Positions 598 through 23,718 of a stretch of 64,000 bases of DNA are shown here, piece by piece. The translations under genes were made by a program, and so were the position numbers. This DNA comes from Escherichia coli (GTDB taxonomy: Bacteria > Pseudomonadota > Gammaproteobacteria > Enterobacterales > Enterobacteriaceae), in the NCBI RefSeq assembly GCF_013315695.1, contig NZ_CP054353.1. One strand, 5' to 3'. Every line of letters begins with the position of its first letter. The first letter of the stretch is position 1. The notes beneath the pieces are model-generated. The model saw only the letters and a program-made list of their open reading frames with translations, searched no databases and had not been told where the DNA came from.

Positions 598-1959
<1,362 letters not shown>

Positions 1960-4950: not shown

Positions 4951-4967
4951 AATTAAGAGAGTAAGCA

Positions 4968-5561: not shown

Positions 5562-6988
5562 TGGCATTTGATGATTTACGCAGCTTTTTACAGGCGCTCG
5601 ACGACCATGGGCAATTGCTGAAAATCAGCGAAGAGGTGAACGCAGAACCGGATCTGGCAGCCGCAGCCAACGCCACCGGGCGTATCGGCGACGGCGCGCC
5701 AGCGCTGTGGTTTGATAATATTCGCGGCTTTACCGATGCCCGCGTGGCGATGAACACCATCGGTTCCTGGCAGAACCACGCGATTTCCCTCGGCCTGCCG
5801 CCAAATACCCCGGTTAAAAAACAGATCGATGAGTTTATCCGCCGCTGGGACAACTTCCCGATTGCCCCGGAACGCCGAGCCAATCCAGCCTGGGCGCAGA
5901 ACACCGTCGATGGAGACGAGATCAACCTGTTCGATATCCTGCCGCTGTTTCGTTTAAACGATGGCGATGGCGGTTTCTATCTCGACAAAGCGTGCGTGGT
6001 TTCCCGCGATCCGCTTGATCCGGATAACTTCGGCAAGCAGAACGTCGGTATCTACCGCATGGAAGTGAAGGGCAAACGTAAGCTCGGCCTGCAACCGGTG
6101 CCGATGCACGATATCGCCCTGCATCTGCATAAAGCGGAAGAGCGCGGTGAAGATCTGCCGATTGCGATCACCCTCGGTAACGATCCGATCATCACGCTGA
6201 TGGGGGCCACGCCGCTGAAATATGATCAGTCCGAGTACGAAATGGCAGGCGCGCTGCGTGAAAGCCCGTACCCGATCGCCACCGCCCCGCTGACTGGTTT
6301 TGATGTGCCGTGGGGTTCAGAAGTGATCCTCGAAGGGGTTATCGAAAGTCGTAAACGTGAGATCGAAGGGCCGTTCGGTGAGTTTACCGGCCACTACTCC
6401 GGTGGGCGCAACATGACCGTGGTGCGCATCGATAAAGTCTCTTACCGCACGAAACCGATTTTCGAATCGCTGTACCTCGGCATGCCGTGGACGGAAATCG
6501 ACTATCTGATGGGGCCAGCCACCTGCGTGCCGCTGTATCAGCAACTGAAAGCCGAGTTCCCGGAAGTGCAGGCGGTGAACGCCATGTACACCCACGGCCT
6601 GCTGGCGATTATCTCCACCAAAAAACGCTACGGTGGCTTTGCCCGCGCGGTGGGCCTGCGTGCGATGACCACGCCGCACGGTCTGGGCTATGTGAAGATG
6701 GTGATTATGGTCGATGAAGACGTTGATCCGTTCAACCTGCCGCAGGTGATGTGGGCGCTCTCCTCGAAAGTGAACCCGGCAGGGGATTTGGTGCAGTTGC
6801 CGAATATGTCCGTGCTGGAACTCGACCCAGGCTCAAGCCCGGCGGGGATCACCGACAAGCTGATTATCGACGCCACCACGCCTGTCGCCCCGGACAACCG
6901 TGGTCACTACAGTCAGCCGGTGGTGGATTTACCGGAAACCAAAGCCTGGGCTGAAAAACTGACCGCTATGCTGGCCGCACGTCAATAA
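5561..6988 (+). CDS. ecdC: UbiD-family (prenyl-FMN dependent) aromatic acid decarboxylase subunit C
   Basis: 475 aa; UbiD-like length and sequence; start overlaps the upstream stop (translational coupling). Confidence 0.8.
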   Translation: MAFDDLRSFLQALDDHGQLLKISEEVNAEPDLAAAANATGRIGDGAPALWFDNIRGFTDARVAMNTIGSWQNHAISLGLPPNTPVKKQIDEFIRRWDNFPIAPERRANPAWAQNTVDGDEINLFDILPLFRLNDGDGGFYLDKACVVSRDPLDPDNFGKQNVGIYRMEVKGKRKLGLQPVPMHDIALHLHKAEERGEDLPIAITLGNDPIITLMGATPLKYDQSEYEMAGALRESPYPIATAPLTGFDVPWGSEVILEGVIESRKREIEGPFGEFTGHYSGGRNMTVVRIDKVSYRTKPIFESLYLGMPWTEIDYLMGPATCVPLYQQLKAEFPEVQAVNAMYTHGLLAIISTKKRYGGFARAVGLRAMTTPHGLGYVKMVIMVDEDVDPFNLPQVMWALSSKVNPAGDLVQLPNMSVLELDPGSSPAGITDKLIIDATTPVAPDNRGHYSQPVVDLPETKAWAEKLTAMLAARQ

Positions 6989-6998
6989 GGAGAACAAG

Positions 6999-7235
6999 AT
7001 GATTTGTCCACGTTGTGCTGATGAACAGATTGAAGTGATGGCGAAATCGCCGGTAAAAGATGTCTGGACGGTCTACCAGTGCCAGCATTGCCTCTATACC
7101 TGGCGCGATACCGAACCGCTGCGCCGCACCAGCCGCGAACATTATCCCGAAGCGTTCCGCATGACGCAGAAAGATATTGATGACGCGCCGATGGTGCCGA
7201 GCATCCCGCCGCTGCTGGCGGAAGGTAAGCGCTAA
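6999..7235 (+). CDS. ecdD: small decarboxylase subunit D (zinc-ribbon protein)
   Basis: 78 aa; CPRC...CQHC pair of CxxC motifs; RBS aggagaacaag upstream; third gene of the operon. Confidence 0.7.
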   Translation: MICPRCADEQIEVMAKSPVKDVWTVYQCQHCLYTWRDTEPLRRTSREHYPEAFRMTQKDIDDAPMVPSIPPLLAEGKR

Positions 7236-7236
7236 A

Positions 7237-7268
7237 TAAAAGGTCCGATGCCCATCGGACCTTTTTAT
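7237..7268. terminator. Bidirectional intrinsic terminator between the decarboxylase operon and ygbN
   Basis: aaataaaa-ggtccgatgcccatcggacc-ttttt: GC stem flanked by an A-run and a T-run between convergent genes. Confidence 0.7.
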
Positions 7269-7273
7269 TAAGG

Positions 7274-8638
7274 TCAAATTACCGCCCATACGCACCAGGT
7301 AATTAAGAATCCGGTAAAACCGAGAATGGTCGTTAACACTGTCCAGGTTTTCAGACCGTCTGCTACCGACAACCCCAGATATTTGGTCACAATCCAGAAC
7401 CCTGAGTCATTAATATGTGACGCGCCAAGCCCACCAAAGCAGGCTGCCAGCGTCACCAATACGCACTGAATCGGATTCAATCCCATCACCGCTTCTGAGA
7501 GTAACCCGCCGGTTGTCAGGATTGCTACGGTTGCTGACCCCTGCGATGCACGCAGCGCCAGTGAAATAATAAATGCGGCTGGTAACAGAGGCAGGTCAAT
7601 CATTTGTAGCATGTTGGCAAGGGCTTTGCCGACGCCCGATTCCACCAGCACTTTGCCAAATACCCCTCCAGCACCAGTAACCAAAATCACTACCGCCGCG
7701 GTGGGAAGGGCTGAGCCCATAATGTCGCTGGTGTGTTGTAAGCTCCAGCCGCGACGTAAAGCCAATAACCAGAATGCCAGCACCAGCGCAATCATTAGAG
7801 CTACCATTGGTGAGCCGATCAGCTGTAGCGTACCAAGCAGGGGATGCGAAGGCGGCATCAGTGTTGCGGAAACCGTACCCGCCATGATAATCGCGATAGG
7901 AATAACAATTAGCGAGGTGACCAGCGCGACGCCCGGTGGATTTATTTTATCGCTTAATTTTGTCGCGCCTTCCTCACTGGCCGGAGCCAGTTGCATCTGT
8001 TCCAGTACTTCCACCGACATCGCATATTGGCGCTTATTGATTATTTTCGCTGCAAAGTAGCCAACAATCCCTACGGGAATAGAAATCGCAATACCGATGA
8101 TGGTTAGCCAGCCGATGTCTGCGTGGAGTAACCCCGCTGCGGCGACAGGGCCTGGATGCGGCGGTACCGCCACATGAACAGTTAGCATGATTCCAGCGAC
8201 AGGCAGGCCAAATTTGAGTGGCGATATTTTGGCAACCTTGGCAAAACCGTAAATGATTGGCGCAAGAATAATAAAGCCGACATCAAAGAAGACGGGGATA
8301 CCGAGGAAGAACGCTGCCAGAGTCAGCGCAGCGATAGTTCGTTTGTCACCTAACTTGCGACTGAAATAATTAGCCAGTGACTCTGCACCACCAGAGTGTT
8401 CGATCATACGCCCCAGCATAGCGCCCAGACCAATAATAATAGTGACGGAACCAAGCACACCGCCCATCCCGGCGATCATCACTTTACCCACTTCGCCCGC
8501 CGGTATACCCGCCGCAAGTGCGACTAACAGGCTGACGAGGAGCAGAGCAACGAATGGTTGTACCTTTGCCTTGATGACCAGCAGCAACAGCATGATTACG
8601 CCAGTTAACGCAATGCATAACAATGTAATTGTGGACAT
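7274..8638 (-). CDS. ygbN: GntP-family acid-sugar permease
   Basis: 454 aa polytopic membrane protein; GntP-like; conserved position next to ygbM. Confidence 0.85.
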   Translation of the reverse strand: MSTITLLCIALTGVIMLLLLVIKAKVQPFVALLLVSLLVALAAGIPAGEVGKVMIAGMGGVLGSVTIIIGLGAMLGRMIEHSGGAESLANYFSRKLGDKRTIAALTLAAFFLGIPVFFDVGFIILAPIIYGFAKVAKISPLKFGLPVAGIMLTVHVAVPPHPGPVAAAGLLHADIGWLTIIGIAISIPVGIVGYFAAKIINKRQYAMSVEVLEQMQLAPASEEGATKLSDKINPPGVALVTSLIVIPIAIIMAGTVSATLMPPSHPLLGTLQLIGSPMVALMIALVLAFWLLALRRGWSLQHTSDIMGSALPTAAVVILVTGAGGVFGKVLVESGVGKALANMLQMIDLPLLPAAFIISLALRASQGSATVAILTTGGLLSEAVMGLNPIQCVLVTLAACFGGLGASHINDSGFWIVTKYLGLSVADGLKTWTVLTTILGFTGFLITWCVWAVI

Positions 8639-8726
8639 GGGAAACCCTGTCTGAAAGTTATAGTTAACCTACCCCATCCGTAGATGGGGGGATGTATGGG
8701 TACGTTGTAATTAGGGATTTAACGAA

Positions 8727-9503
8727 TTAGCGCCAGGCGTCAAACCAGCCAAGCCCTTCTTCGGTGAGGCCACGAGGTTTATATTCACAACCGATCCAGC
8801 CCTGATATCCCACCTCATCGAACAGGCGGAACAGCCACGGATAGTTGATTTCTCCATCGTCCGGTTCATGTCGATCAGGTAGTCCGGCAATTTGTACGTG
8901 CGCATATTTCCCGGCGTAGTCGCGGATTAAATGCGTCAGGTTGCCATCTACTTTTTGCGCATGAAAAGTATCTAGTTGAATAAACACGTTATCTCGCGCA
9001 ACTTCTTCAACAATAGCCAGTGCCTGATACTGGCTGGAGAAGAGATAATGAGGCTTAACGCCGGGGCTGAGTGCTTCAACTAATATTCGCTTGCCGTGTG
9101 GCGCAAAGCGGTCGGCAGCGTAGCGGAGATTATCGATAAATACTGCCCTGTACCGTTCAGCATCTTCGCCAGCGGGCACGACGCCTGCCATCACATGGAC
9201 TTGTTCACAATTGAGCGCCAATGCATATTCCAGTGCCAGGTCGATGTCTGCGTGTGCTTCGTGCTCACGTCCGGGAAGGGCGGATAATCCCCATTCCCCC
9301 GCATTAATATCTCCGGGAGCGGTATTGAACAGCGCCAGTGTCAGATGGTTTTGCTCCAGTTGCTTTTGGATTTGCAGGGTGGAGTAGTTATAGGGAAACA
9401 GAAATTCCACAGCATCGAACCCGGCTTTTCGCGCTGCGGCGAAGCGTTCAATAAAAGGCACTTCGGTGAACATCATGGATAAATTAGCTGCAAAACGAGG
9501 CAT
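8727..9503 (-). CDS. ygbM: 2-oxo-tetronate isomerase (hydroxypyruvate isomerase-like TIM barrel)
   Basis: 258 aa starting [21 protein letters not shown]; xylose-isomerase-like fold family. Confidence 0.85.
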
Positions 9504-9507
9504 TGCA

Positions 9508-10146
9508 TTAACTCCTTAATTCCGCAATTTCACCTGCGGTCAGATAACGGATCGGGCGGTCACCGAGAATAAAAATCAGCTTTGCCGTTTCCTCCAGCTC
9601 TTCCATATTGTTGGCGGCTTCTTGCAGGCTTTCACCGCAAACCACTGGGCCATGATTTGCCAGTAAAAAAGCCTGATTGTCTGCTGCCAGTTCCGCCAGA
9701 TCCTGTGCGATGCGTTTATCGCCCGGTCGGTAATAAGGCACCAGCGGGATATTTCCCATCCGCATCACCACGTATGGTGTGAACGGACGAATAACGTTGC
9801 TGCTGTCCAGCCCTTGCAGGCAGGAAAGCGCCGTCGACCATGTGCTGTGCAAATGCACCACCGCTTTACAGCGCGGATTGTTGCGATACAGCGCCAGATG
9901 AAAGAGCACCTCTTTCGAGGGTTTGTCACCACTTAACCATTCGCCATCCGCGGCGACTTTGGAAAGCCGCTGCGGATCGAGATTGCCCAGGCATGAACCT
10001 GTCGGTGTCGCCAGTAAATTCCCGTCAGGTAAAAGCAGCGACAGATTGCCAGCCGAACCGGTTGCATAGCCGCGCTGAAAGAATGAACTGGCAATCCGCG
10101 TCATCTCCTCTCGCAAAGACTGCTCTACTTTTGCGAAATCGCTCAT
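9508..10146 (-). CDS. ygbL: class II aldolase/adducin-family 3-oxo-tetronate 4-phosphate decarboxylase
   Basis: 212 aa; class II aldolase-like; 4-bp overlap with ygbK. Confidence 0.85.
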
Positions 10147-11405
10147 GATAAAAACTCTCTTTGGGCTCGTGAAAAAAAGGCTTCATCACCGAAGTTGCCA
10201 GATTTAAGGGCGAGTGAGACAGGCTTATCCAGTGCGTTTACCCACGGCACGCCAGGGGAAATGGTTGGGCCAATATGAAACCCTTTTATTCCCAGGCTCT
10301 GTGTGACTACGCCGGAGGTCTCACCGCCTGCGACAATAAAGCGTGTCACGCCTTCCGCTGCTAACCGCGCCGCTAGTTGAGAAAACAGTGTTTCTACTGC
10401 CTGACTGGCTTTTTGTGCACCGTATTGCTGTTGAATTGCTGCCAATGCGTCAGTGCTTGCGGTGGCAAAAACCAGTGGAGCAAGTACACTTTCCTGGCCC
10501 AGAACCCACTCTGCCAGTTCGTGTGCATAAGCGGCCAGAGTTTCAATTGAGAGGCAGCGTGCCACATCAACTTCACGGGCTGGTGCAATTTGACGGTAAT
10601 GTGCTACCTGGCGGTTGGTCATTTGAGAGCATGAACCGGAGAGCACTACGCCGCGCCCAGCGAGCGGATGCCCTGCTTTGCGAGCCTGGTTACCGTTTTC
10701 TTGCGCCCACTGCCGGGCAAGGCCAATCGCCAGACCAGAACCGCCCGTTACCAGTGGGGCATCGCGCAAGGCTTCTCCCTGAATTTCCAGATGGTATTCG
10801 GTCAGCGCATCAAGCACCGCGTAGCGGTAGCCCTCTTGCTGTAAGCGAGCCAGCTCTTGACGAACGGCATCCACACCTTGTTCGAAAACATGTGCCGAAA
10901 CGACGCCGCAGCGCCCTGTGGATTGCGCTTCAACCAGACGGGGAAGATAGCTGTCGGTCATGGGATTTACCGGGTGATGGCGCATCCCGGATTCGGCCAG
11001 CAGTTGATTCATTACGAACAAATACCCCTGATAAACCGTACGTCCGTTGACCGGCAGGGCCGGAGAGAAGACCGTAAACGGCGTGTCGAGAGCATCCATT
11101 AATGCATCGGTAACCGGGCCGATATTACCTTTCGCCGTACTGTCGAAAGTAGAGCAGTATTTGAAATAGATCTGTTTGCAACCTTGCTGTTGCAACCAGC
11201 TCAGAGCCGCCAGCGATTGCTGTGTGGCTTCAACCACCGGACAGGAACGCGTTTTCAGGCTGATCACCAGTGCGTCGATTGCTTCCGGCATTTTACCTGT
11301 TGGAACACCGTTAATTTGTACCGTTGGTAGACCGTTTTCCACCAGAAAACTGGCGATATCCGTCGCGCCGGTAAAATCATCGGCGATAACGCCAATCTTG
11401 ATCAT
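10143..11405 (-). CDS. ygbK: four-carbon acid sugar (3-oxo-tetronate) kinase, DUF1537 family
   Basis: 420 aa starting MIKIGVIADDFTGATD; overlaps ygbJ stop. Confidence 0.85.
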   Translation of the reverse strand: MIKIGVIADDFTGATDIASFLVENGLPTVQINGVPTGKMPEAIDALVISLKTRSCPVVEATQQSLAALSWLQQQGCKQIYFKYCSTFDSTAKGNIGPVTDALMDALDTPFTVFSPALPVNGRTVYQGYLFVMNQLLAESGMRHHPVNPMTDSYLPRLVEAQSTGRCGVVSAHVFEQGVDAVRQELARLQQEGYRYAVLDALTEYHLEIQGEALRDAPLVTGGSGLAIGLARQWAQENGNQARKAGHPLAGRGVVLSGSCSQMTNRQVAHYRQIAPAREVDVARCLSIETLAAYAHELAEWVLGQESVLAPLVFATASTDALAAIQQQYGAQKASQAVETLFSQLAARLAAEGVTRFIVAGGETSGVVTQSLGIKGFHIGPTISPGVPWVNALDKPVSLALKSGNFGDEAFFSRAQREFLS

Positions 11406-12310
11406 GATTTCGCTCCCGGTAGAGTGATGCCAGAGAAAATCTTGATAACTGCGCTATCGTCTTCTTTCCCGTAACCCGCGTTACTGGCGCTGGTGAACAT
11501 ATTCAATGCTGTTGAGGCCAATGGCAGCGGGAAGTGCAGGGCTTTGGCTGTATCGGCAACCAGACCAAGATCCTTAACAAAAATATCGACGGCTGAATGC
11601 GGGGTGTAATCGCCATCCACCACATGACGCATCCGGTTTTCGAACATCCAGGAATTTCCGGCGGCATTGGTCACGACGTCATACATCACATCCAGCGGGA
11701 TCCCCGCACGGGCTGCAAGTGCCATCGCTTCGGCTCCGGCAGCAATATGTACGCCCGCTAACAACTGGTGAATAATTTTTACGGTCGAACCTGGTCCCGG
11801 TTCTGCACCTATGCGATAAACTTTTCCGGCAACGGCTTCCAGCACGGGTGCCAGTCGTTCAAAGGCAATATCGCTACCGGAGGCCATGACAGTCATTTCA
11901 CCGTTAGCGGCTTTTACTGCACCACCAGAAACTGGCGCATCCAGCATTTCCAGATCGAATCCAGCCAGAGCGGTAGCAATTTCTTGCGCATCAGCACTAG
12001 CGATAGTGGAAGAAACCATTACTGCCGTACCGGGTTTCAGATGTTGTGCAACGCCTGTTTCACCAAACAGCACCTGTTTAACCTGGGCCGCATTGACCAC
12101 CAGCACCAGCAGAGCGTCCAGTTTTTCGGCAAACGTCGCGGCGTTATCAGAAACCCCGCAAGCACCTGCCTCTTTCAACGTAGCGCAGGCATTGCTGTTC
12201 AGGTCTGCGCCCCAGGTAGAAAGACCTGCGCGGACACATGACAGTGCTGCTCCCATTCCCATTGACCCTAAGCCAACGATACCGACATGAAACTCAGATC
12301 CCGTTTTCAT
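11402..12310 (-). CDS. ygbJ: NAD-dependent L-threonate dehydrogenase (3-hydroxyisobutyrate dehydrogenase family)
   Basis: 302 aa; N-terminal Rossmann motif GIVGLGSMGMGAA. Confidence 0.85.
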   Translation of the reverse strand: MKTGSEFHVGIVGLGSMGMGAALSCVRAGLSTWGADLNSNACATLKEAGACGVSDNAATFAEKLDALLVLVVNAAQVKQVLFGETGVAQHLKPGTAVMVSSTIASADAQEIATALAGFDLEMLDAPVSGGAVKAANGEMTVMASGSDIAFERLAPVLEAVAGKVYRIGAEPGPGSTVKIIHQLLAGVHIAAGAEAMALAARAGIPLDVMYDVVTNAAGNSWMFENRMRHVVDGDYTPHSAVDIFVKDLGLVADTAKALHFPLPLASTALNMFTSASNAGYGKEDDSAVIKIFSGITLPGAKS

Positions 12311-12475
12311 CTGCTCTCCTTGTTAATTTAAGTGATATTTTGTTTGATATTGTGAATATAAGCGCTGGAAGATAACGATATGGTGAGCTGATTCACAAAA
12401 ATTAACATTGTGTGTTATTTTATGTGAACTAAGCGTTAGTTGCGCCGCGCACGTTTCGCAGGCAAATAGCGTAGA

Positions 12476-13273
12476 ATGTCAGCAGGACAAAGGAAGGAGC
12501 AAAAGTTGATACCCGTAGAGCGTCGCCAAATCATCCTTGAGATGGTAGCTGAAAAAGGCATTGTCAGTATTGCTGAACTAACGGACAGAATGAATGTGTC
12601 ACATATGACCATTCGTCGGGATTTACAAAAACTGGAGCAGCAGGGAGCCGTTGTGCTGGTGTCCGGAGGCGTCCAGTCTCCGGGACGCGTGGCGCATGAA
12701 CCTTCTCATCAGGTAAAAACTGCGCTGGCAATGACGCAAAAAGCGGCTATTGGCAAGCTGGCGGCAAGTCTTGTTCAGCCGGGAAGTTGTATCTATCTGG
12801 ATGCGGGAACGACCACGCTAGCGATAGCACAGCATCTGATTCACATGGAGTCACTGACTGTGGTCACAAACGATTTCGTTATTGCGGACTACTTGCTCGA
12901 CAACAGTAATTGCACAATTATTCACACTGGCGGTGCAGTGTGTCGGGAAAACCGTTCCTGTGTCGGGGAAGCCGCTGCGACCATGCTGCGCAGCCTGATG
13001 ATTGATCAGGCTTTTATTTCTGCATCGTCATGGAGTGTGCGGGGGATTTCTACGCCAGCGGAAGATAAAGTCACGGTGAAACGGGCGATTGCCAGTGCCA
13101 GCCGCCAGCGAGTTTTGGTCTGTGATGCGACGAAATATGGTCAGGTGGCGACATGGCTGGCGTTACCATTAAGCGAGTTTGATCAGATTATTACAGACGA
13201 CGGTTTGCCGGAGAGTGCCAGTCGCGCGCTGGCGAAGCAGGATCTCTCTTTGCTGGTAGCGAAAAATGAATAA
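12476..13273 (+). CDS. ygbI: DeoR-family transcriptional regulator of the ygb cluster
   Basis: 265 aa from the first ATG (a TTG at 12506 would give 255 aa); HTH plus DeoR sugar-binding domain; divergent from ygbJ. Confidence 0.8.
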   Translation: MSAGQRKEQKLIPVERRQIILEMVAEKGIVSIAELTDRMNVSHMTIRRDLQKLEQQGAVVLVSGGVQSPGRVAHEPSHQVKTALAMTQKAAIGKLAASLVQPGSCIYLDAGTTTLAIAQHLIHMESLTVVTNDFVIADYLLDNSNCTIIHTGGAVCRENRSCVGEAAATMLRSLMIDQAFISASSWSVRGISTPAEDKVTVKRAIASASRQRVLVCDATKYGQVATWLALPLSEFDQIITDDGLPESASRALAKQDLSLLVAKNE

Positions 13274-13323
13274 TGGCCTGCAATAACACCGGGTTACTCA
13301 TGCTTCACAGAAGAAGCATGAGA

Positions 13324-13980
13324 CTACTTTATTTTATAAAATGACAGCCGCCCGCTTTTCGGCGATCCGGTATCAATATAAATCTGGTTAGCGAACGTCT
13401 GAGTGTTATCAAACATCATATGACCAAATATAAAGAAGTCGGCACCGTTTATTTTTTGTAATTCGCTATTAAGTGATTTCTGCACACGATCAACAGGCCA
13501 GAGTAATTCGCTCTCCGCTATTTCTTTGCCAAACTGATACTCCTTCCCCGGATAATCTGCATGTGCGATGACATATTTTATGTTGTCGTTAGTGATTTCA
13601 ATAATATGTGGAAGGTGATGAAATTTCAGCAACAGATCTATTGCCGCTTGTTGCTCTGAATCATTTAAATCGAAAAACCAGTCACCACCGCTGGCAAGCC
13701 ACATATTTCCATCGCCAGTTTCGAATGCATCCAACGCCATCGCTTCGTGGTTGCCTTTAACCGACGTAAACCAGGGCTGGTTTAACAGGCGTAGCACGTT
13801 AAGACTCTCCGGCCCACGATCAATGTTGTCGCCGACAGAAATAAGTAAGTCTTTTTCGGGGCAAAAAGAGCGTTGATGTAAGCGGGATTGTAATAATTGA
13901 TAGTCACCATGAATATCACCAACGGCCCATATATGGCGATAGTGATGGGCATTGATTTTTTGATAGCGTGTAGATGGCAT
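13324..13980 (-). CDS. pphB: serine/threonine protein phosphatase 2 (PPP family)
   Basis: 218 aa; metallophosphatase motifs GDIHGD and GNHE. Confidence 0.9.
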   Translation of the reverse strand: MPSTRYQKINAHHYRHIWAVGDIHGDYQLLQSRLHQRSFCPEKDLLISVGDNIDRGPESLNVLRLLNQPWFTSVKGNHEAMALDAFETGDGNMWLASGGDWFFDLNDSEQQAAIDLLLKFHHLPHIIEITNDNIKYVIAHADYPGKEYQFGKEIAESELLWPVDRVQKSLNSELQKINGADFFIFGHMMFDNTQTFANQIYIDTGSPKSGRLSFYKIK

Positions 13981-14085: not shown

Positions 14086-16647
14086 TTACACCAGACTCTT
14101 CAAGCGATAAATCCACTCCAGCGCCTGACGCGGAGTCAGTGAATCCGGGTCGAGGTTTTCCAGTGCCTCGACCGCAGGCGAAGTTTCTTCTGGTACGGAC
14201 AGCAAAGACATCTGCGTGCCATCCACTTGCGTAGCGGCGGCGTTCGGCGAAATGCTTTCCAGCTCACGCAGTTTTTGCCGTGCGCGCTTAATCACCTCTT
14301 TTGGCACGCCCGCCAGAGCAGCAACCGCCAGGCCGTAGCTTTTGCTCGCCGCGCCGTCCTGTACGCTGTGCATAAAGGCGATGGTGTCGCCGTGCTCCAG
14401 CGCATCGAGGTGCACGTTAGCCACGCCTTCCATTTTCTCCGGCAGTTGAGTCAGCTCGAAGTAATGGGTGGCAAACAACGTCAATGCCTTAATCTTATTC
14501 GCCAGATTTTCAGCGCACGCCCACGCCAGCGACAGACCATCGTAAGTGGACGTTCCACGCCCAATCTCATCCATCAACACCAGGCTGTACTCCGTGGCGT
14601 TATGCAGAATATTGGCGGTTTCGGTCATCTCCACCATAAAGGTTGAACGCCCGGATGCCAGATCGTCAGCCGCGCCCACACGGGTAAAGATACGGTCAAT
14701 CGGGCCAATCTCGACTTTTTGCGCCGGTACGTAGCTGCCGATATAGGCCATCAGCGCAATCAGTGCGGTCTGGCGCATATAGGTACTTTTACCGCCCATG
14801 TTCGGACCGGTGATGATCAACATGCGACGCTGCGGCGACAGGTTCAGCGGGTTAGCGATAAACGGCTCATTCAGTACCTGTTCAACTACCGGATGGCGAC
14901 CTTCGGTAATGCGAATACCCGGTTTATCAATGAAGGTCGGGCAGGTGTAGTTCAGGGTATAGGCCCGTTCCGCCAGGTTCACCAGTACGTCGAGTTCTGC
15001 CAGTGCGCTCGCGCTCTGTTGCAACGTTTCCAGATGCGGCAACAGCAGGTCGAACAACTCTTCATAAAGCTGTTTTTCCAGTGCCAGTGCTTTACCTTTC
15101 GAGGTGAGTACTTTGTCTTCATACTCTTTTAGCTCTGGAATAATGTAGCGTTCGGCGTTTTTCAGCGTCTGGCGACGCATATAGTTGATGGGTGCCAGAT
15201 GGCTTTGTCCACGGCTGATCTGAATGTAATAACCATGAACCGCGTTAAAGCCGACTTTCAGCGTGTCCAGGCCAGTACGTTCACGCTCGCGGACTTCCAG
15301 ACGCTCCAGATAATCGGTCGCGCCGTCAGCCAGCGCGCGCCACTCATCCAGCTCTTCGTTATAGCCCGGTGCGATAACACCACCGTCGCGTACCAGCACT
15401 GGCGGTGTGTCGATGATTGCTCGCTCCAGCAGATCGCGCAGCTCGGCAAACTCGCCCATTTTTTCACGCAGCGCCTGTACCGGAGCGCTATCGACATTTT
15501 CTAATAGTGCACGCAGCTCCGGCAGTTGCTGGAAAGCGTGACGCATACGGGCCAGATCGCGTGGGCGAGCAGTTCGTAAAGCCAGACGCGCCAGAATACG
15601 TTCCAGGTCGCCGACCTGACGCAGTACCGGCTGCAGCTCGGCGGTGAAATCCTGCAATGCGCCAATAGTTTGCTGGCGCTCAAGCAACACGCGGGTATCG
15701 CGCACTGGCATATGCAGCCAGCGTTTCAGCATACGGCTGCCCATCGGCGTGACGGTGCAGTCGAGCACAGAAGCCAGCGTATTTTCCGCACCACCCGCCA
15801 GATTCTGGGTGATTTCCAGGTTACGACGCGTCGCGGCATCCATAATGATGCTGTCCTGCTCACGTTCCATAGTGATAGAACGAATATGCGGCAGGGTCGT
15901 GCGTTGGGTATCTTTCGCATATTGCAACAGACAACCGGCGGCACAAAGTCCGCGCGGTGCGTTCTCGACGCCAAAACTGACCAGATCGCGAGTGCCAAAT
16001 TGCAGGTTTAACTGCTGGCGCGCGGTGTCGATTTCAAACTCCCACAGCGGGCGACGACGCAGGCCGCGGCGACCTTCAATCAGCGACATCTCGGCGAAAT
16101 CTTCCGCATACAGTAATTCCGCTGGATTCGTACGTTGCAGTTCTGCCGCCATCGTTTCGCGGTCCGCCGGTTCGCTCAGGCGAAAACGACCGGAACTGAT
16201 ATCCAGCGTTGCGTAGCCGAAACCTTTACTGTCCTGCCAGATAGCCGCCAGCAGGTTGTCCTGACGTTCCTGCAACAGTGCTTCATCGCTGATGGTGCCC
16301 GGCGTAACGATACGGACAACTTTGCGCTCGACCGGCCCTTTGCTGGTCGCTGGATCGCCAATTTGTTCGCAGATGGCAACGGACTCGCCCTGGTTCACCA
16401 GTTTGGCGAGGTAGTTTTCCACCGCATGGTAGGGAATCCCCGCCATCGGGATTGGCTCTCCCGCTGAAGCACCGCGTTTGGTCAGTGAAATATCCAGCAG
16501 TTGCGACGCCCGTTTTGCGTCGTCATAAAACAGTTCATAAAAGTCGCCCATCCGGTAAAACAGCAGGATCTCGGGATGCTGGGCTTTCAGCTTGAGATAT
16601 TGCTGCATCATGGGCGTATGGGCATCGAAATTTTCTATTGCACTCAT
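14086..16647 (-). CDS. mutS: DNA mismatch repair protein MutS
   Basis: 853 aa; Walker [10 protein letters not shown]; start [18 protein letters not shown]. Confidence 0.95.
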
Positions 16648-16894
16648 GGGGTTATGTCCGGTTCCCTGATATTAAATGGGGTGTGATGGTTTTTATTTTC
16701 GTTGTTATCACATAAGGCGCACATGATACCGGAGTTAATCATTTCAGGGGAAGAAGCGAACGGCGAGTTCTTGATGGTGATTCCGGGAAAGATGCTGTTT
16801 TGCAGCTTTTGCGTGATGCTTATGAAGCAAGTACGCAAAATTGCGTCGGTTGAATAAACCTCCTCCTTCAGAGCCATAGTCCCCTTTCAAATTA

Positions 16895-16917
16895 AGTTGT
16901 AATATAAATACACCTTA
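16895..16917. promoter_or_regulatory. Putative NsrR operator upstream of ygbA
   Basis: aagttgtaatataaatacacctt resembles the 11-1-11 NsrR inverted-repeat consensus; sits about 17 bp upstream of the ygbA ATG. Confidence 0.4.
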
Positions 16918-16933
16918 AGAGTATGGAGGCAGC

Positions 16934-17278
16934 ATGTCCGGCAAGCGTATCTCTCGTGAAAAACTGACGATTAAAAAAATGATCGATCTTTATCAAGCGA
17001 AATGCCCGCAGGCGTCAGCAGAGCCGGAGCATTACGAGGCGTTGTTTGCTTACGCGCAAAAGCGGCTGGATAAATGTGTGTTCGGCGAAGAGAAACCAGC
17101 CTGTAAGCAGTGTCCGGTGCACTGTTACCAGCCAGCAAAGCGTGAAGAGATGAAACAGATTATGCGTTGGGCCGGGCCGCGAATGCTGTGGCGTCATCCG
17201 ATCTTAACCGTGCGTCATCTCATCGATGACAAGCGTCCGGTGCCGGAGTTGCCAGAAAAATATCGTCCAAAGAAATAA
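16934..17278 (+). CDS. ygbA: conserved small Cys-rich protein YgbA
   Basis: 114 aa; ggagg RBS 6 nt upstream; position between mutS and fhlA. Confidence 0.8.
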   Translation: MSGKRISREKLTIKKMIDLYQAKCPQASAEPEHYEALFAYAQKRLDKCVFGEEKPACKQCPVHCYQPAKREEMKQIMRWAGPRMLWRHPILTVRHLIDDKRPVPELPEKYRPKK

Positions 17279-17282
17279 ATCT

Positions 17283-17305
17283 GCCGGAGAGCCATACTCT
17301 CCGGC
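17283..17305. terminator. Hairpin terminator between ygbA and the Mop gene
   Basis: gccggagag-ccata-ctctccggc (9-bp stem); a U-rich tract follows on the minus-strand transcript. Confidence 0.6.
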
Positions 17306-17316
17306 AAATAAGGCGT

Positions 17317-17745
17317 TTACGCTTTGGTGGCAATCAGGATGGCTGATGCTTTGATCAATGCAATAACGCGCGAGCCAGTGGTGAGTTTCATTTCATCCTG
17401 ACTTTCATTTGTTACCACTGCCACAATTTCAAAACCCGCATCCGTTTTGATATGGACAGTGGCGTTCACTGCGCCTTCGGTGATTGTCGACACGCTGCCA
17501 GCAAACTGGTTGCGAGCAGAGAATTTCAGTCCACAGTCTTCCGTTGCCAGTGTTACCCACGGGGCTTTAATCAGGGCAATCGCTTCTTTCCCTTTTGCCA
17601 GACCAAGAGCCTGCTGGCTGCTGTGTGTAACAATTGCCACCAGCTTTGCACCACCTGCCAGCGTCAGTTCTACTTCATCATTCACAGCGCCCATTGCTAC
17701 TGCGCTAACTGTTCCGGTTAATTGATTTCTTGCTGAAACTGCCAT
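17317..17745 (-). CDS. di-Mop (tandem TOBE) molybdate/molybdenum-pterin-binding protein
   Basis: 142 aa from the ATG at 17745, which has a perfect aaaggagg RBS 4 nt upstream; two ~70-aa halves each starting SARNQ(L/F)xG(T/S)VS; begins 44 bp after the fhlA stop. Confidence 0.75.
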   Translation of the reverse strand: MAVSARNQLTGTVSAVAMGAVNDEVELTLAGGAKLVAIVTHSSQQALGLAKGKEAIALIKAPWVTLATEDCGLKFSARNQFAGSVSTITEGAVNATVHIKTDAGFEIVAVVTNESQDEMKLTTGSRVIALIKASAILIATKA

Positions 17746-17789
17746 ACTGCCTCCTTTCATTGAATGTTGATCGAGTATAACCACATCTG

Positions 17790-19868
17790 TTAAATCAATG
17801 CCGATTTATCAATTCCCAGTCGCTTCATCCGTGACAGCAGAGTCGTGCGTTTCAGCCCCAGACGTTGCGCAGCGCCTTTAGGCCCGGCAACCACGCCGTT
17901 TGTTTCTTTCAGCACGCGAACAATCAACTGATATTCATCTTCGCCCTCCTGGGCGACAACCGTTGCGGCAGGCGGCGTTTCAGGTTCTGGTAAAGCAATA
18001 TCTGGCAATGACAGCTGCAGCACGTTGCCGCGTGTTAGCAATACCGCGCGCTCGATGACGTTTTCCAGCTCACGCACGTTGCCCGGCCATTCCATGTTGC
18101 TCAGGATGCGCAGCGTCTCGGCAGGAATGCTGTCGATATTGCGCCCCAGACGACGGGCAATTTTGAAGGTAAAGGCTTTCGCCAGCAGCGGAATATCTTC
18201 CGGACGCTCGCGTAGTGGCGGCAGGTGGATCGGGAATACGTTCAGGCGGTAATAGAGATCACTACGGAACTCTCGGTCGGCGACCATTTTTTTCAGATCG
18301 CGGTTAGTCGCGGCAATTAAACGTACGTCCGTCTGAATGATTTTGTTGCTGCCGAGGCGTTCAAACTCCTGTTCCTGTAATACACGCAGCAACTTCGGCT
18401 GTAACTCCAGCGGCATATCGCCCACTTCGTCGAGGAACAGGGAGCTTTTATCCGCCAGTTCAAAACGACCAATGCGCTGGGCGCTGGCACCGGTAAAAGC
18501 CCCACGCTCATGACCAAACAGATCGCTCTCCAGCAATCCGGCAGGCATCGCCGCGCAGTTCATTTTTACCATGCGGCGATTATTACGCCCACTGAGATTA
18601 TGGATAGCACGGGCAATCAGCTCTTTACCCGTGCCAGTTTCACCGAGGATCAGCACGGTACTGTCACTTTGCGCCACCATTTCAACTTGTTTAAGCACGC
18701 TGTACATGGCTTCGCTGCGGCCAATAATCTCGCCAAATTCACTATCAACATTGTTGAGCTGCTCGGTCAGGGCGAGGTTTTCATCAACCAGCCGTTCTTT
18801 CAGACGATGGATTTCCTGATAGGCGAGGGCGTTATCGACAGCGATTGCCACACGTTCGGCAATCTGGCGCAGTAAATTCAGATTGGTAGTGGTAAACACT
18901 TTCTCTTCGCATTGCGCCAGTTTCAGCACGCCCAGCATGGTGTCGCCAGACATCAGCGGTAACAGGCACAAGGTTTGAATCTGGTTGCCCCAGGTGTCGA
19001 ACAACATGCGTTCATAGGGGGCTAAATCGTCCCGCTCGTGGAGATTAATCAACAGCATCTCTTTACTTTTGAAGACGCGTTCGGTGAGGGTTCCGGCTTC
19101 ATCGACTTCGCTCTGTTCGTGGGCGGGATGCTGTTTATCAAGATAGTGAGTGGAGTAGATGTTGAGTTTGTTTTTACGGTGGCTGCGTAAGACGATGCTG
19201 ATATCGTCAATGTCGAAGTAGTAATGGATTTCTTTGGCGACTTCGCTGACCAGTTCGTCCATATCCAGGCGGGAAAGCACCGCGTTGGTAATGGCAACCA
19301 GGATGCGGAAGTTATCGCGCTCCCGGCATAACAACTCATAGTCGACATTGTTAACGACGCGGCTCTGGATTTGTTCGGTGACGACCGAAACGATCTGCGT
19401 AAATGTTTGCAGACGATTGAACTCTTTTTCGCTCCAGGGGCGATCGTCATAACGAATAAATTCACAGCCACCAAAAATATGCCCTTCCGCCGCCAGTGGC
19501 ATCAGGCAATAGTGACCAAATTTGGGGTATAGTCCACCTGCGGCCAGCTGCGGCCAGGTTTCACAAAATTCTTCGTAACTGCAATGCAGCGTATCAGGGC
19601 GCGACAAAATGCTGCGTACCGGACCGTGTGCCAGAACAGTTTCGTCTTCATATTTAATGGGGGTGTCTTTTTCACGCGACGCGTAATAAGACGCACGTTG
19701 AGTCTGCGCTTGCCACAACACAATAGCCGCGTTGTCGGCGAGCGCAGAACGCTTTACCAGTTGCGAAAGAGCCTCACACAGCGAGGCCAGATCGGGCTGC
19801 TGCAATAGTGTCCGAGTGATGTCGAACAACCCTTGTTGTCCGAGATCACTCATCGGTGTATATGACAT
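17790..19868 (-). CDS. fhlA: formate hydrogenlyase transcriptional activator (sigma-54 enhancer-binding protein)
   Basis: 692 aa starting MSYTPMSDLGQQGLF; GAF domains, AAA+ core with GETGTGKE and GAFTGA, C-terminal HTH. Confidence 0.95.
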   Translation of the reverse strand: MSYTPMSDLGQQGLFDITRTLLQQPDLASLCEALSQLVKRSALADNAAIVLWQAQTQRASYYASREKDTPIKYEDETVLAHGPVRSILSRPDTLHCSYEEFCETWPQLAAGGLYPKFGHYCLMPLAAEGHIFGGCEFIRYDDRPWSEKEFNRLQTFTQIVSVVTEQIQSRVVNNVDYELLCRERDNFRILVAITNAVLSRLDMDELVSEVAKEIHYYFDIDDISIVLRSHRKNKLNIYSTHYLDKQHPAHEQSEVDEAGTLTERVFKSKEMLLINLHERDDLAPYERMLFDTWGNQIQTLCLLPLMSGDTMLGVLKLAQCEEKVFTTTNLNLLRQIAERVAIAVDNALAYQEIHRLKERLVDENLALTEQLNNVDSEFGEIIGRSEAMYSVLKQVEMVAQSDSTVLILGETGTGKELIARAIHNLSGRNNRRMVKMNCAAMPAGLLESDLFGHERGAFTGASAQRIGRFELADKSSLFLDEVGDMPLELQPKLLRVLQEQEFERLGSNKIIQTDVRLIAATNRDLKKMVADREFRSDLYYRLNVFPIHLPPLRERPEDIPLLAKAFTFKIARRLGRNIDSIPAETLRILSNMEWPGNVRELENVIERAVLLTRGNVLQLSLPDIALPEPETPPAATVVAQEGEDEYQLIVRVLKETNGVVAGPKGAAQRLGLKRTTLLSRMKRLGIDKSALI

Positions 19869-19941
19869 TTTGTTCTTCCAGGAAAGCACCGCAAAGCGGT
19901 GCAAAAGGTCATTGACTAACTATAGGAGATTTAGAATTTTA

Positions 19942-20952
19942 TTAGCATATACGCGGAAGCGGTTCGGCGTGTGGTAAATCGAGGGTTCGTTTCACGCCAT
20001 ACAGACCGGCAAGACGAACACCTTTACGTTCCACCACTTCACCAATCAGCGCCGCGTCTTTTCCCAATGGATGGGAATGTAACGCCGCCAGCACTTGCTC
20101 TGCTGCGTTGCGTTCAACGGCGATCACCAGTTTGCCTTCGTTGGCAAAATTAAGGGCGTCCAGTCCCAGCAGTTCGCAAACGCCGCGTACAGCAGGTTTA
20201 ACCGGCAGTGCCGCTTCTGAAATTTCAATACCACAACCGCAGGCTGCCGCGAACTCATGAACTACCGCGTTCACTCCACCACGGGTGGCATCACGCAGCG
20301 CTTTCACGCCGGGAATGTCACGCAGCGTCTGAATAACCGGCGTTAGTACCGCACAGTCGCTTACCAGTTCGCCATCCAGCCCCAGCTGCTCACGCAGGTT
20401 AAGGATAGTCGCCCCGTGGTCGCCGAGAGTTCCACTCACCAGCAGAACATCGCCTGCGGTTAGCGTTTGTGCGCCCCAGTGAATATTCGCCGGAATTGCG
20501 CCCATGCCAGCGGTGTTGATAAACAGTTTATCTGCCGCGCCGCGCTGCACCACTTTAGTATCGCCAGTAACGATGGCAATGCCTGCCGCGCGGGCGGTTT
20601 CTGCCATGCTGGTCACTACGGCTTTCAGTGTCTCCATCGGCAATCCTTCTTCGAGGATAAAGCCACAGGAGAGATAGCGCGGAATAGCGCCACTGACCGC
20701 AACGTCATTCGCGGTGCCGCAAATCGCCAGCTTGCCGATATTACCGCCAGGGAAGAACAGCGGGTCAATAACGTAACTGTCGGTGGAGAACGCCAGACGG
20801 TCGCCTTCCGCCACCAGTTGTGCCAGATCAAGGCGCGCCTGGTCTTCCTGTTCTGCCAGCCACGGATTGGAAAAAGCTTCCATAAACAGGCTGTTGATTA
20901 ATTGCTGCATCGCCTGGCCGCCGCTGCCGTGGGCGAGTTGGATATTATTCAC
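19942..20952 (-). CDS. hypE: hydrogenase maturation protein HypE
   Basis: 336 aa; AIR-synthase-like; C-terminal PRIC. Confidence 0.9.
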   Translation of the reverse strand: MNNIQLAHGSGGQAMQQLINSLFMEAFSNPWLAEQEDQARLDLAQLVAEGDRLAFSTDSYVIDPLFFPGGNIGKLAICGTANDVAVSGAIPRYLSCGFILEEGLPMETLKAVVTSMAETARAAGIAIVTGDTKVVQRGAADKLFINTAGMGAIPANIHWGAQTLTAGDVLLVSGTLGDHGATILNLREQLGLDGELVSDCAVLTPVIQTLRDIPGVKALRDATRGGVNAVVHEFAAACGCGIEISEAALPVKPAVRGVCELLGLDALNFANEGKLVIAVERNAAEQVLAALHSHPLGKDAALIGEVVERKGVRLAGLYGVKRTLDLPHAEPLPRIC

Positions 20953-22070
20953 GCTTCACTCTCCTGCTGACGATACTGATACCACGCGGCGCATGCTCCT
21001 TCGGAGGAAACCATCAGCGCGCCAAACGCGGTTTGAGGATTACAGGTGTTACCAAACAGCGGGCATTGATGCGGCTTACATTTGCCCGTTAATACTTCGC
21101 CACAACGTGCGCGCGGGTCATCGCAGACCTGCTGCGGTGCCGGGCGGAAATGCGCTTCGGCATCGAATCGTTGATAATCCGGCGTCAGGTGTACACCAGA
21201 AGATTCAATCACGCCTAAGCCGCGCCATTCGCTGTCGCCGTTGACACAGAACACATCGGCAATCGCCTGTTGCGCCAGCAGGTTACCGGCATCCGGCACC
21301 ACCCGACGATACTGATTCTCTACCTTGCTGTGGGCTGCTATTTTCTGCTCCACCAGCATGACCACGCCTTGCAGTAGATCAAGCGGTTCGAAACCAGCCA
21401 CCACCAGCGGACGATGAAAATCGCTGGCGATAAAATTATAGGCGTCGGTGCCGATAACCATACTGACGTGGCCGGGCGCGAGGAACGCGTCGATACCGTT
21501 ATCCGGCTGTTCCAGCAAACTGCGCAGTGTTGGGATGAGCGTAATGTGCTGGCAGAAGAAGTAAAAATTCTGCACATCGCGGGCTTTTGCCTGTTGCAGA
21601 GTGATGGCGGTGGTCGGCATGGTGGTTTCAAAACCTAAGCCGAAGAACACCACTTTGCGGGTTGGATTCTCCTGCGCCAGTTTTAACGCATCCATTGGCG
21701 AGTAAACGATGCGCACATCGGCACCGCGCGCTTTTGCCTGTAACAACGACCCCTGTTTCCCTGGTACGCGCATGGCGTCGCCAAAGGTACAGAAGATGAC
21801 TTCCGGATGGCTGGCAATCTCCACGCAGGTGTCGATTCTTCCCATCGGCAGTACACATACCGGGCAACCCGGACCGTGGATAAACTCAACGTTCTCCGGC
21901 AGCAACTGGTCGAGGCCGAATTTAAAAATGGCGTGGGTATGACCGCCACACACTTCCATAATCCGCAGAGGGCGTTCGGCGGTGTAAGAGAGATGTGAAG
22001 CACGTTCGCGCAGATGCTCAATTAACTGCATCACCTGTTCCGGCGCGCGATATTCATCAACAAAACGCAT
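20949..22070 (-). CDS. hypD: hydrogenase maturation protein HypD
   Basis: 373 aa; conserved CGxH and CPVC motifs. Confidence 0.9.
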   Translation of the reverse strand: MRFVDEYRAPEQVMQLIEHLRERASHLSYTAERPLRIMEVCGGHTHAIFKFGLDQLLPENVEFIHGPGCPVCVLPMGRIDTCVEIASHPEVIFCTFGDAMRVPGKQGSLLQAKARGADVRIVYSPMDALKLAQENPTRKVVFFGLGFETTMPTTAITLQQAKARDVQNFYFFCQHITLIPTLRSLLEQPDNGIDAFLAPGHVSMVIGTDAYNFIASDFHRPLVVAGFEPLDLLQGVVMLVEQKIAAHSKVENQYRRVVPDAGNLLAQQAIADVFCVNGDSEWRGLGVIESSGVHLTPDYQRFDAEAHFRPAPQQVCDDPRARCGEVLTGKCKPHQCPLFGNTCNPQTAFGALMVSSEGACAAWYQYRQQESEA

Positions 22071-22342
22071 TATTTTTCCTCGCCATACAACAGCGCACCG
22101 ACATCCGGCTCAACGTCAAACATGTTTTGTAAGGCGTCGAGAGTGTCGCGCGCTTCGGCTTCATTAATTACGCTCATGGCAAAGCCAACGTGAACCAGTA
22201 CCCACTGGCCCACGCGTGGCTGACCGTTTTCATCGCAGCTGCCGACTAACGTTAAATCGACATCGCGCTGAATGCCGCAGACGTCGACTTTCGCCTGGTT
22301 GCCGTCAATGGTGCGGATCTGGCCGGGAACGCCTATGCACAT
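22070..22342 (-). CDS. hypC: hydrogenase maturation chaperone HypC
   Basis: 90 aa starting MCIGVPGQI (start at the internal ATG of the track ORF). Confidence 0.9.
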
Positions 22343-23205
22343 CGCTGTGTCTCCAGCCAGTTCAGCCACTGCTCCATCCCTTCGCCGCTGGTGGCGGAAA
22401 TAAGGATGATTTCAATTTCTGGATTGACTTCACGGGCGCAGGCGATGCACTTCTCAACGTCGAAATTGAGATACGGCAGCAAGTCAACTTTGTTGAGCAG
22501 CATCAGCGAGGCGGCGGCAAACATATGCGGATATTTCAGCGGTTTGTCTTCACCTTCGGTAACGGAAAGCACCGCCACTTTGTGTTTTTCACCGAGATCG
22601 AAGCTGGCCGGGCAAACGAGGTTACCAACGTTTTCGATAAACAGAATACCGTTATCGGCCAGTGGCAGGCGCGGTGCGGCGTCGGCAATCATCTGAGCGT
22701 CGAGATGGCAGCCTTTACCGGTATTCACCTGAATCGCTGGTGTGCCGGTAGCACGAATGCGTGCGGCATCGTTCACGGTTTGCTGATCGCCTTCAATAAC
22801 CGCGCACGGAACGCTGTCTTTCAGGCGCATTAAGGTTTCCGTCAGCAGGGTGGTTTTACCGGAACCAGGGCTGGAAACTAGGTTGAGCACCAGTTGCTTG
22901 CGGGCAGCAAAGCGCGCGCGGTTGCGTTCAGCCAGACGGTTATTTTTGTCCAGCACGTCAATTTCGACTTCCAGCATCCGACGCTGGCTCATGCCCGGCG
23001 CGTGAGTGCCCGCTTCGCCATGACCGTAATGCAGGTCGCCTTCTTCAGTCTGGCTGGGGGTAAATTCAGGCGCTTTAATGCCGGTGATTTTCATCTTCGG
23101 GCGTGCCGCCGGGGCAAATGGCGCGCTACGAAACGCGGAATGAGGGTTATGTTCATCACCCTCAATATAGAGGTTGCCTTCACCGCAACCGCATGTTGTA
23201 CACAT
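22333..23205 (-). CDS. hypB: hydrogenase nickel incorporation GTPase HypB
   Basis: 290 aa; N-terminal CTTCGC metal site; GSGKTT P-loop. Confidence 0.9.
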
Positions 23206-23208
23206 CGC

Positions 23209-23559
23209 TCACTCCTGGTCTATTTCTATCCGCCGAATCTGTAAACCGTCGTCTGCCACAATCTGTAGCATGTCACCATGACACTGTGGACAGCGGCGGA
23301 CGCGCTGGGTCAGTAGCGTCACATACTGTTGGCATGTTTCACACCAGCATTCGGCCTCTTGTTCTTCGAGGTGCAGTTTACAACCTTCCGCCACGCTGCC
23401 GCGGCAAACCAGATCAAAACAAAAGGCAAGAGAGCTGGTTTCGACACAAGAAAATGCGCCAATTTTGAGCCAGACCCCAGTTACGCGTTTTGCGCCGTGT
23501 TTTGCGGCCTGCTGTTCGATCAATTCCAGTGCCCGTTGGCAGAGGGTTATTTCGTGCAT
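23209..23559 (-). CDS. hypA: hydrogenase nickel insertion protein HypA
   Basis: 116 aa starting MHEITLCQ; CxxC...CxxC zinc site. Confidence 0.9.
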   Translation of the reverse strand: MHEITLCQRALELIEQQAAKHGAKRVTGVWLKIGAFSCVETSSLAFCFDLVCRGSVAEGCKLHLEEQEAECWCETCQQYVTLLTQRVRRCPQCHGDMLQIVADDGLQIRRIEIDQE

Positions 23560-23718
23560 ATCGCCTCCCATTAACTATTGCCAGCTACAAGCAATAATTG
23601 TGCCAGTGTTGATTATCCCTGCGGTGAATAATGTCGATGATGTCGAAATGACACGTCGACACGGCGACGAAATTCATCTTTAGCTTAGAAATTGCTTTAA
23701 TAACAATGAATTAAAAGT

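Follow-up and report, generated by a model that had tools for sequence, protein, structure and literature searches.

We report that a 64,000-nucleotide stretch of Escherichia coli DNA (contig NZ_CP054353.1 of assembly GCF_013315695.1; here referred to as the window) carries, directly downstream of fhlA and on the same strand, a gene here named mop, the product of which is, as judged by homology and predicted fold, a free-standing di-Mop protein, i.e. a molbindin of the ModG type. Comparison of gene order and divergence indicates that mop is ancestral to the hyp-fhlA locus of the Enterobacteriaceae and that K-12 carries a deletion. The protein most likely buffers or stores cytoplasmic molybdate so that cofactor can be supplied to FdhH, a molybdoenzyme that is the formate dehydrogenase of formate hydrogenlyase (FHL), and we put the probability of this reading, i.e. 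an ancestral gene of the locus with such a role, at roughly 0.7.

Domains, fold and ligand residues of a ModG-type molbindin

The mop coding sequence (CDS) covers positions 17317..17745 on the minus strand, starts with ATG and gives a product of 142 amino acids (aa) with the same sequence as RefSeq WP_000301062.1, which is annotated in ECCNB12-2 and CFT073. An earlier note on this DNA, made from the letters without database searches, had described the open reading frame (ORF) as two tandem Mop/TOBE halves of the ModG/Mop type. The ORF list gives the same boundaries, and the search against the TOBE/Mop family that the note had proposed as a check returned two significant matches in Pfam PF03459, domain 1 at residues 4-66 (17548..17736, minus strand; 1.6e-17) and domain 2 at residues 76-137 (17335..17520, minus strand; 6.2e-16). 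NCBIfam TIGR00638 (Mop) likewise gives two matches (142 bits, cut-off 55); the protein has no further domain, and its halves are 43% identical to one another (E 3e-18). A 155-codon version of the gene, starting at an upstream GTG, was considered and rejected as unsupported, since the homologues in all genera have 142 aa and begin with M-x-[VI]-S-[AS]-R-N.

Among solved structures the top relative is ModG of Azotobacter vinelandii (1h9j; E 5e-33 over residues 1-140, 48% identity), followed by the di-Mop domain of E. coli ModE (~1e-15) and by single-domain Mop and Tub proteins. The AlphaFold model of the mop product (predicted local distance difference test, pLDDT, 92.9) superimposes on 1h9j with a template modelling (TM) score of 0.95, a root mean square deviation (rmsd) of 1.4 Å and 48% identity (Foldseek), and less well on the E. 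coli ModE di-Mop domain (TM 0.88-0.90, 34-36% identity). The likeness to ModG thus extends over the full-length sequence and the fold, and Pfam, TIGR00638, the 1h9j match and the superposition agree on the class that the earlier note had proposed. ModG (1h9j/1h9k/1h9m) is a cytoplasmic di-Mop molbindin of 145 aa, compared with 142 here, and both proteins consist of two tandem Mop domains alone, with the SARN, GAVN, T and KA(P/S) ligand motifs present in both halves of the mop product. The two differ in context in that mop is the last gene of a cluster for hydrogenase maturation and FHL activation (hyp-fhlA). In A. vinelandii, modG is linked to mod genes; the 64-kb window contains none, the neighbours of mop being fhlA and ygbA. 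Such linkage is typical of ModG and is not defining for the protein family. ModG itself has been described in connection with molybdate homeostasis and formation of the MoFe-cofactor for nitrogenase (PMC11980592).

In Tub, Mop and ModG the oxyanion is bound on the three-fold axis by the backbone of A20-V21-N22, and at the interface by S4, R6, K60 and A61 together with S40 of the neighbouring subunit (PMC11980592). The corresponding residues in domain 1 of the mop product are S4, R6, A20-V21-N22, T40, K60 and A61, and in domain 2, with a shift of 72 residues, S76, R78, A92-V93-N94, T112, K132 and A133; that is, both domains contain the type-1 (A-V-N backbone) and the type-2 (S, R, T/S, K and A) residues. 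In 12 enterobacterial homologues the ligand positions are invariant, A20 nearly so. The single-domain proteins MopII of Clostridium pasteurianum (1gug), Mop of Sporomusa ovata (1fr3) and Tub of Eubacterium limosum (9beb) align to each half with E-values between 2e-9 and 3e-5 and a per-domain rmsd of 1.0-1.3 Å, and have the same type-1 and type-2 site residues. These proteins are single domains that form hexamers, whereas the mop product has two fused domains, and since the domains are fused a trimer is predicted. By analogy with A. vinelandii ModG, such a trimer would be equivalent to a Mop-domain hexamer and would hold up to eight ions of molybdate or tungstate, at three-fold-axis sites and at subunit-interface sites.

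The C-terminal di-Mop domain of E. coli ModE (1h9s, 1o7l, 1b9m) has its fold and its molybdate/tungstate-binding residues in common with the mop product, but the latter lacks the N-terminal winged-helix DNA-binding domain, and the upstream GTG start would add just 13 residues. Accordingly, the ModE equivalog NF007957 reaches 88 bits, the cut-off being 369, with only profile positions 124-261 of 263 aligned. The models for the ABC-transporter ATPases ModC and WtpC match with 47-49 bits against equivalog cut-offs of 285-440, and the match is confined to their C-terminal regulatory TOBE domain, which corresponds to the second half of the mop product (also in 3d31); the nucleotide-binding domain of these ATPases is lacking. 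Because these models match only through their C-terminal parts and below cut-off, we conclude that the mop product is neither a ModE nor a transporter ATPase.

Gene order and divergence indicate that mop is ancestral

The gene order hypE-fhlA-mop-ygbA is present in E. albertii, E. fergusonii, Escherichia sp. MOD1-EC7003, several Citrobacter species and Pseudocitrobacter, and also in Klebsiella (K. spallanzanii and K. indica), Raoultella, Kluyvera, several Enterobacter, Pluralibacter, Lelliottia, Yokenella and Kosakonia. Altogether mop is located 3' of fhlA in approximately 35 representative species belonging to at least 10 genera, with a distance between the two genes of mostly 31-60 nt among the species examined; on the gene orders compared, the fhlA-mop linkage is a feature of the core Enterobacteriaceae. 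Moreover, mop has diverged together with its flanks: its nucleotide identity is ~93% to E. albertii (fhlA 84-94%, ygbA 94%), ~80% to C. amalonaticus (fhlA 80-86%) and ~75% to E. fergusonii (fhlA 78-86%). No repeats, insertion sequence (IS) elements, integrase or other mobile-element signature was detected at the fhlA-mop-ygbA site. Since the synteny is widespread, the divergence equals that of the flanks and signs of a mobile element are lacking, we infer that mop is ancestral at this locus and that the K-12 arrangement arose by deletion.

The comparison with MG1655 showed an empty site, as expected from the earlier note, which knew of no such gene in K-12; the distance between fhlA and ygbA is 36 bp there, not the ~80 bp that the note gave. 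The site is also empty in O157:H7 Sakai; both genomes were inspected directly. The note took mop to be inserted after fhlA, and on this point the polarity has to be reversed, given the conserved order in at least 10 genera and the flank-matched divergence. In the deletion allele of K-12 and O157:H7 ~470 bp are missing, corresponding to the 44-nt spacer plus the 429-nt CDS, and at both breakpoints there is a stop codon with (A)C behind it. As a result of the loss of spacer and CDS, a homologous terminator hairpin is now positioned directly 3' of fhlA, just past its stop codon, in K-12.

To follow the two alleles within the species, 5426 complete E. coli genomes were searched for mop, and for the empty junction with a 71-bp probe of the K-12 type. 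The gene is present in 1892 genomes (34.9%), always as one copy and always on the chromosome, and the K-12-type empty junction in 3501 (64.5%), each with at least 95% identity over the 71 bp, such that the two alleles together account for 99.4% of the genomes. A sensitive blastn search of this sample yielded no diverged or second copy, only the same 1892 genomes, once each. The uniformity of the empty junction in 3501 genomes points to a single deletion allele behind the absence of mop in E. coli. Among the genomes with mop are those of the uropathogen CFT073 and of an ST131 isolate; these two belong to phylogroup B2, IAI39 to F, MG1655 to A, Sakai to E and O104:H4 to B1. A published comparison shows that IAI39 carries mop between fhlA and ygbA and that O104:H4 has no gene between the two (PMC7232297).

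Homologues outside the fhlA locus

Some Salmonella serovars have an 89%-identical mop elsewhere in the genome, on an island and adjacent to a fragment of IS21 istB, and this translocated copy keeps the same 40-nt leader, GGCTATACT…GAAAGGAGGCAGT-ATG. Considering the island location and the retained leader, mop has therefore moved horizontally at least once. On the S. enterica contigs concerned (L091/L092) the copy is at 4001-4429, the island also has a CaiF/GrlA-like gene and a fimbrial usher, and a molybdopterin oxidoreductase/cytochrome b pair lies ~3 kb away. Homologues with 59-70% identity are present in Edwardsiella, Cedecea, Buttiauxella, Yersinia and Brenneria, and with 45-57% identity in Pseudomonas, Herbaspirillum and Halomonas, in all cases in unrelated contexts. 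A quick inspection of the ORFs beside the Edwardsiella, Yersinia, Cedecea, Pseudomonas and Herbaspirillum copies recognised no mod, fdh or hyc genes.

Signals and transcription of mop

The mop ATG is preceded, at a distance of 4 nt, by the Shine-Dalgarno sequence AAAGGAGG (17757..17750, minus strand; read directly), and a GGAG(G) core is found at equal offset before mop in 27 of 27 species compared. Upstream, fhlA (17790..19868, minus strand) was identified by its 99.4% aa identity to K-12 FhlA and by the annotation of near-identical genomes. Its stop codon TAA is at 17792..17790, which leaves a spacer of exactly 44 nt (17746..17789, minus strand). No terminator-like site was detected in this spacer by the terminator scan, and its predicted RNA fold (-6.8 kcal/mol, z 0.08) is no better than that of shuffled sequences; an Rfam search of 16600..20100, with the Moco riboswitch included, gave zero matches. 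Downstream of mop there is an intrinsic terminator (17269..17309, minus strand; terminator scan and folding) with a 14-pair GC-rich hairpin (17309..17279) and the T-rich tail TTATTTCTTT. The hairpin has a predicted stability of -23.1 kcal/mol (z -5.4), equalled by none of 200 shuffles, and the terminator abuts the stop codon of the convergent gene ygbA (16934..17278, plus strand; 114 aa; ORF list). The strong ribosome binding site, the start 44 bp past the fhlA stop, the lack of a terminator between the two genes and the hairpin with U-tract at the end of mop had all been read in the earlier note and were borne out here.

The hypABCDE genes (19942..23559, minus strand) lie upstream in the same cluster and were assigned by annotation transfer from ECCNB12-2, the coordinates of which coincide with the window from 13328 onward. 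A sigma-54 -24/-12 element, TGGCACAATTATTGC (23605..23591, minus strand), is located upstream of hypA and is the only perfect match to the pattern TGGCAC-N5-TTGC in the 64-kb window; we take it to be the FhlA-dependent hyp promoter known from K-12, and the known FhlA-binding region is that between hycA and hypA. Hence mop has the arrangement of a distal gene of hypABCDE-fhlA, with the same strand, a gap of 44 nt and a terminator only after mop. In view of the terminator-free passage from fhlA to mop, read-through is plausible, and it is possible that mop is co-transcribed with hypBCDE-fhlA.

In addition, our data suggest that mop may have a promoter of its own. Within the otherwise variable spacer, the block GG(C/T)TATACT, which contains the -10-like hexamer TATACT (17779..17774, minus strand), is kept in Escherichia, Citrobacter, Pseudocitrobacter, Kluyvera and the translocated Salmonella copy, and related forms (GGCTATAA/GGCTATAC) occur in other genera. 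Furthermore, fhlA has been lost in Phytobacter and Kosakonia sp. S29 (L044, L049 and L070; 5866-6000) and in Raoultella sp. BIGb0138 (L022; about 5930-6018), with its tail and an intact mop being kept; the remnant comprises the last 12-17 codons, ending with …KKMGMDKQAMT or …LLSRMKRLGINKNELV before the stop, directly 5' of mop. This retention is compatible with a putative mop promoter that overlaps the fhlA tail, and the conserved hexamer TATACT is a candidate promoter element for mop. No good -35 element accompanies the hexamer, and a sigma-70 promoter scan gave no minus-strand match near mop. Across genera, -10-like hexamers were found 5' of mop in 25 of 60 distinct sequences versus 19.8 expected from shuffles, which is not significant overall, and only the GG(C/T)TATACT block of some genera stands out. 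Two regulator sites were considered and rejected: a ModE operator sought by eye around GG(C/T)TATACT (with TAYAT-N7-TAYAT as the consensus), the second half-site of which is not conserved between genera, and an FNR site with TTGAT at 17812..17808, in which the second half matches poorly, the location deviates by ~3 nt from class II and conservation does not extend to E. albertii.

Proposed role and alternative functions

We propose that the mop product would be made alongside hyp-fhlA expression, and would buffer or store cytoplasmic molybdate and thereby sustain the supply of molybdenum cofactor (Moco) to FdhH; it may also blunt interference by tungstate. The placement of mop behind the FHL activator gene is what suggests a role during FHL assembly. 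Maximal expression of hyc and fdhF in K-12 requires ModE-molybdate besides FhlA and formate (PMC3149613), which makes the FHL/molybdenum context, regarded as suggestive in the earlier note, a reasonable one.

Several observations weigh against this reading. First, mop is patchy in its distribution: the representative genomes searched for S. enterica and Klebsiella pneumoniae yielded no copy, although homologues from these species would fit the search patterns. Second, it is dispensable: active FHL is formed in K-12 in its absence, and the gene is missing from two thirds of E. coli. Third, its homologues are not beside fhlA in Edwardsiella, Yersinia, Cedecea, Buttiauxella, Brenneria and Salmonella. 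With the homologues of distant Enterobacterales and Salmonella located away from fhlA, the link to FHL is therefore lineage-specific and may reflect position and not function. Finally, A. vinelandii ModG is tied to mod genes and nitrogenase and not to formate metabolism (PMC11980592).

Alternatively, the free di-Mop protein might act as a molybdate sensor that pairs with the di-Mop part of ModE or contacts FhlA or MoeA, and in this way tunes hyc, fdhF or mod. The association of mop with an FHL regulator gene in many genera, the fold that it has in common with the ModE sensor domain and the known response of hyc/fdhF transcription to molybdate via ModE would fit with this. However, the protein is nearer to the storage-type ModG than to ModE in identity (48% versus 34-36%) and it has no DNA-binding or partner-binding extension, and we consider a sensor function unlikely. 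Rather unlikely too is a di-Mop protein dedicated to FHL, which would tie FHL biogenesis or regulation to the molybdate available, either by passing molybdate into Moco synthesis on behalf of FdhH or by modulating ModE/FhlA-dependent expression of hyc and fdhF.

We regard it as improbable that the protein is a tungstate trap, the main benefit of which would be to sequester tungstate, a poison of E. coli molybdoenzymes, and so to protect FdhH and other molybdoenzymes. Mop/TOBE proteins have both molybdate and tungstate as ligands, Tub serves specifically to store tungstate (PMC11980592), and tungstate inhibits molybdoenzyme-dependent growth of Enterobacteriaceae in the inflamed gut (PMC6781011); yet the sequence carries nothing that separates a preference for tungsten from one for molybdenum, and no tup or other tungsten-specific genes are nearby.

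Insertion and decay as alternatives to an ancestral working gene

The view that an accessory Mop gene was recently inserted in this lineage, and that the K-12 site is the ancestral one, could appeal to the absence of mop from K-12 and O157:H7, to the fhlA-mutS interval being a hotspot of gene gain and loss (PMC7232297) and to the Salmonella homologue on an island by an IS21 fragment, which indicates that mop can move. It is in effect already refuted and very improbable: position, orientation and spacing are alike in at least 10 genera, mop has diverged as far as the flanks each time they were compared, repeats, IS elements and integrase are lacking, and all empty sites have one and the same junction. 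Moreover, the ygbA linked to mop, of 114 aa, is the outgroup form (E. fergusonii with 120 aa excepted), as opposed to 117 aa in K-12. We therefore retain the reading of mop as an ancestral gene that K-12 has lost.

With respect to this site, it was also observed that ~100 bp at the terminator and the 3' end of ygbA (window 17200-17320; L001 4417-4480) differ unusually strongly between the E. coli alleles, with 87% identity over a 200-bp interval versus 96-100% nearby. YgbA has 117 aa (ending …RPKKPHE) in K-12 and Sakai and 114 aa (ending …RPKK) in the window, CFT073, E. albertii and Citrobacter. The hairpin arm of K-12, TATGCCGGACAGG, agrees fully with that of C. amalonaticus, and the window has its arm in common with E. 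albertii. This pattern suggests an old split between the alleles or recombination at the site.

The pattern of substitutions indicates that mop is a working gene under purifying selection. Pairwise dN/dS is 0.028 for E. albertii, 0.04-0.05 for Citrobacter, 0.06 for Kluyvera and 0.05-0.09 for other orthologues. Compared with the window, the CFT073 allele has 8 substitutions in 429 nt, all in third codon position and all synonymous, and encodes an identical protein. That mop is a decaying relic or a truncated modE paralogue without function, as its published name modE and its repeated loss might be taken to imply, is most improbable in light of these low ratios (0.03-0.09), the full length at DNA level of 1889 of the 1892 E. 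coli copies, the conserved ribosome binding site and the partial, sub-threshold NF007957 match to a protein without a helix-turn-helix (HTH) domain.

Earlier annotation and implications

The gene is already annotated, in 1892 complete E. coli genomes, and is not a new one: its product is named 'TOBE domain-containing protein' or 'molybdopterin-binding protein' in RefSeq, and the 90%-identity cluster of WP_000301062.1 has 1003 member sequences from Escherichia and Citrobacter. It was seen at this site in 2020 by Lerminiaux et al. (PMC7232297), who labelled it modE. This label is a misnomer, since the mop product has no winged-helix domain and matches NF007957 at positions 124-261 only, and the ModG-type identity would correct it. 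Our literature searches found no functional study of mop, and its ModG-type identity, how widely fhlA and mop are linked, and the dimorphism that a single deletion gave rise to in E. coli appear to be unreported.

Work on FHL and on molybdate regulation in E. coli has been carried out almost entirely in K-12, which has lost mop. If the protein were dedicated to FHL, decades of K-12 work would have missed it because it is deleted there, and the B2/F (mop-positive) and A/E (mop-negative) lineages would differ in their molybdenum/tungsten physiology in the gut. If mop affects the cofactor supply to FdhH or tungstate tolerance, it would modify fermentation and hydrogen production in a lineage-specific way, and it could alter the response to tungstate-based 'microbiota editing' (PMC6781011), with a uropathogen and an ST131 isolate among the carriers. 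On the other hand, if mop is only a dispensable metal buffer, we would be dealing with an ordinary presence/absence polymorphism.

Other regions of the window

The gene at 17790-19868 is labelled 'flhA'/'FlhA' in related genomes by the RefSeq annotation pipeline PGAP, which conflicts with the symbol flhA of the flagellar export gene; the FHL activator gene has fhlA as its established name. A 44-codon ORF at 16723-16857 (plus strand), in the mutS/ygbA interval, corresponds to the hypothetical protein WP_000611937.1 of ECCNB12-2 and has no other support. Between hycI and ascB there is a 160-aa ORF (31946-32428, plus strand), where ECCNB12-2 and CFT073 have a 251-aa hypothetical protein and O157 Sakai has just ~120 bp; this may be another insertion/deletion beside the FHL cluster, with a truncated copy in the window.

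The rpoS-mutS interval (1-13327) is a well-known polymorphic region and contains here a ygbN-ygbI/otnK/ltnD cluster at 7274-13273. Directly upstream of it (to ~7240) are genes for a MarR-type regulator and hydroxyarylic acid decarboxylase BCD, assigned by homology to ECCNB12-2. The latter genome is without the 6-kb ygb block, and CFT073 is without the decarboxylase block. Finally, an internal tandem repeat at 56301-56824 with a period of ~140 bp represents the serV-argV/Y/Z/Q tRNA array with four tRNA-Arg copies, which is an ordinary feature.

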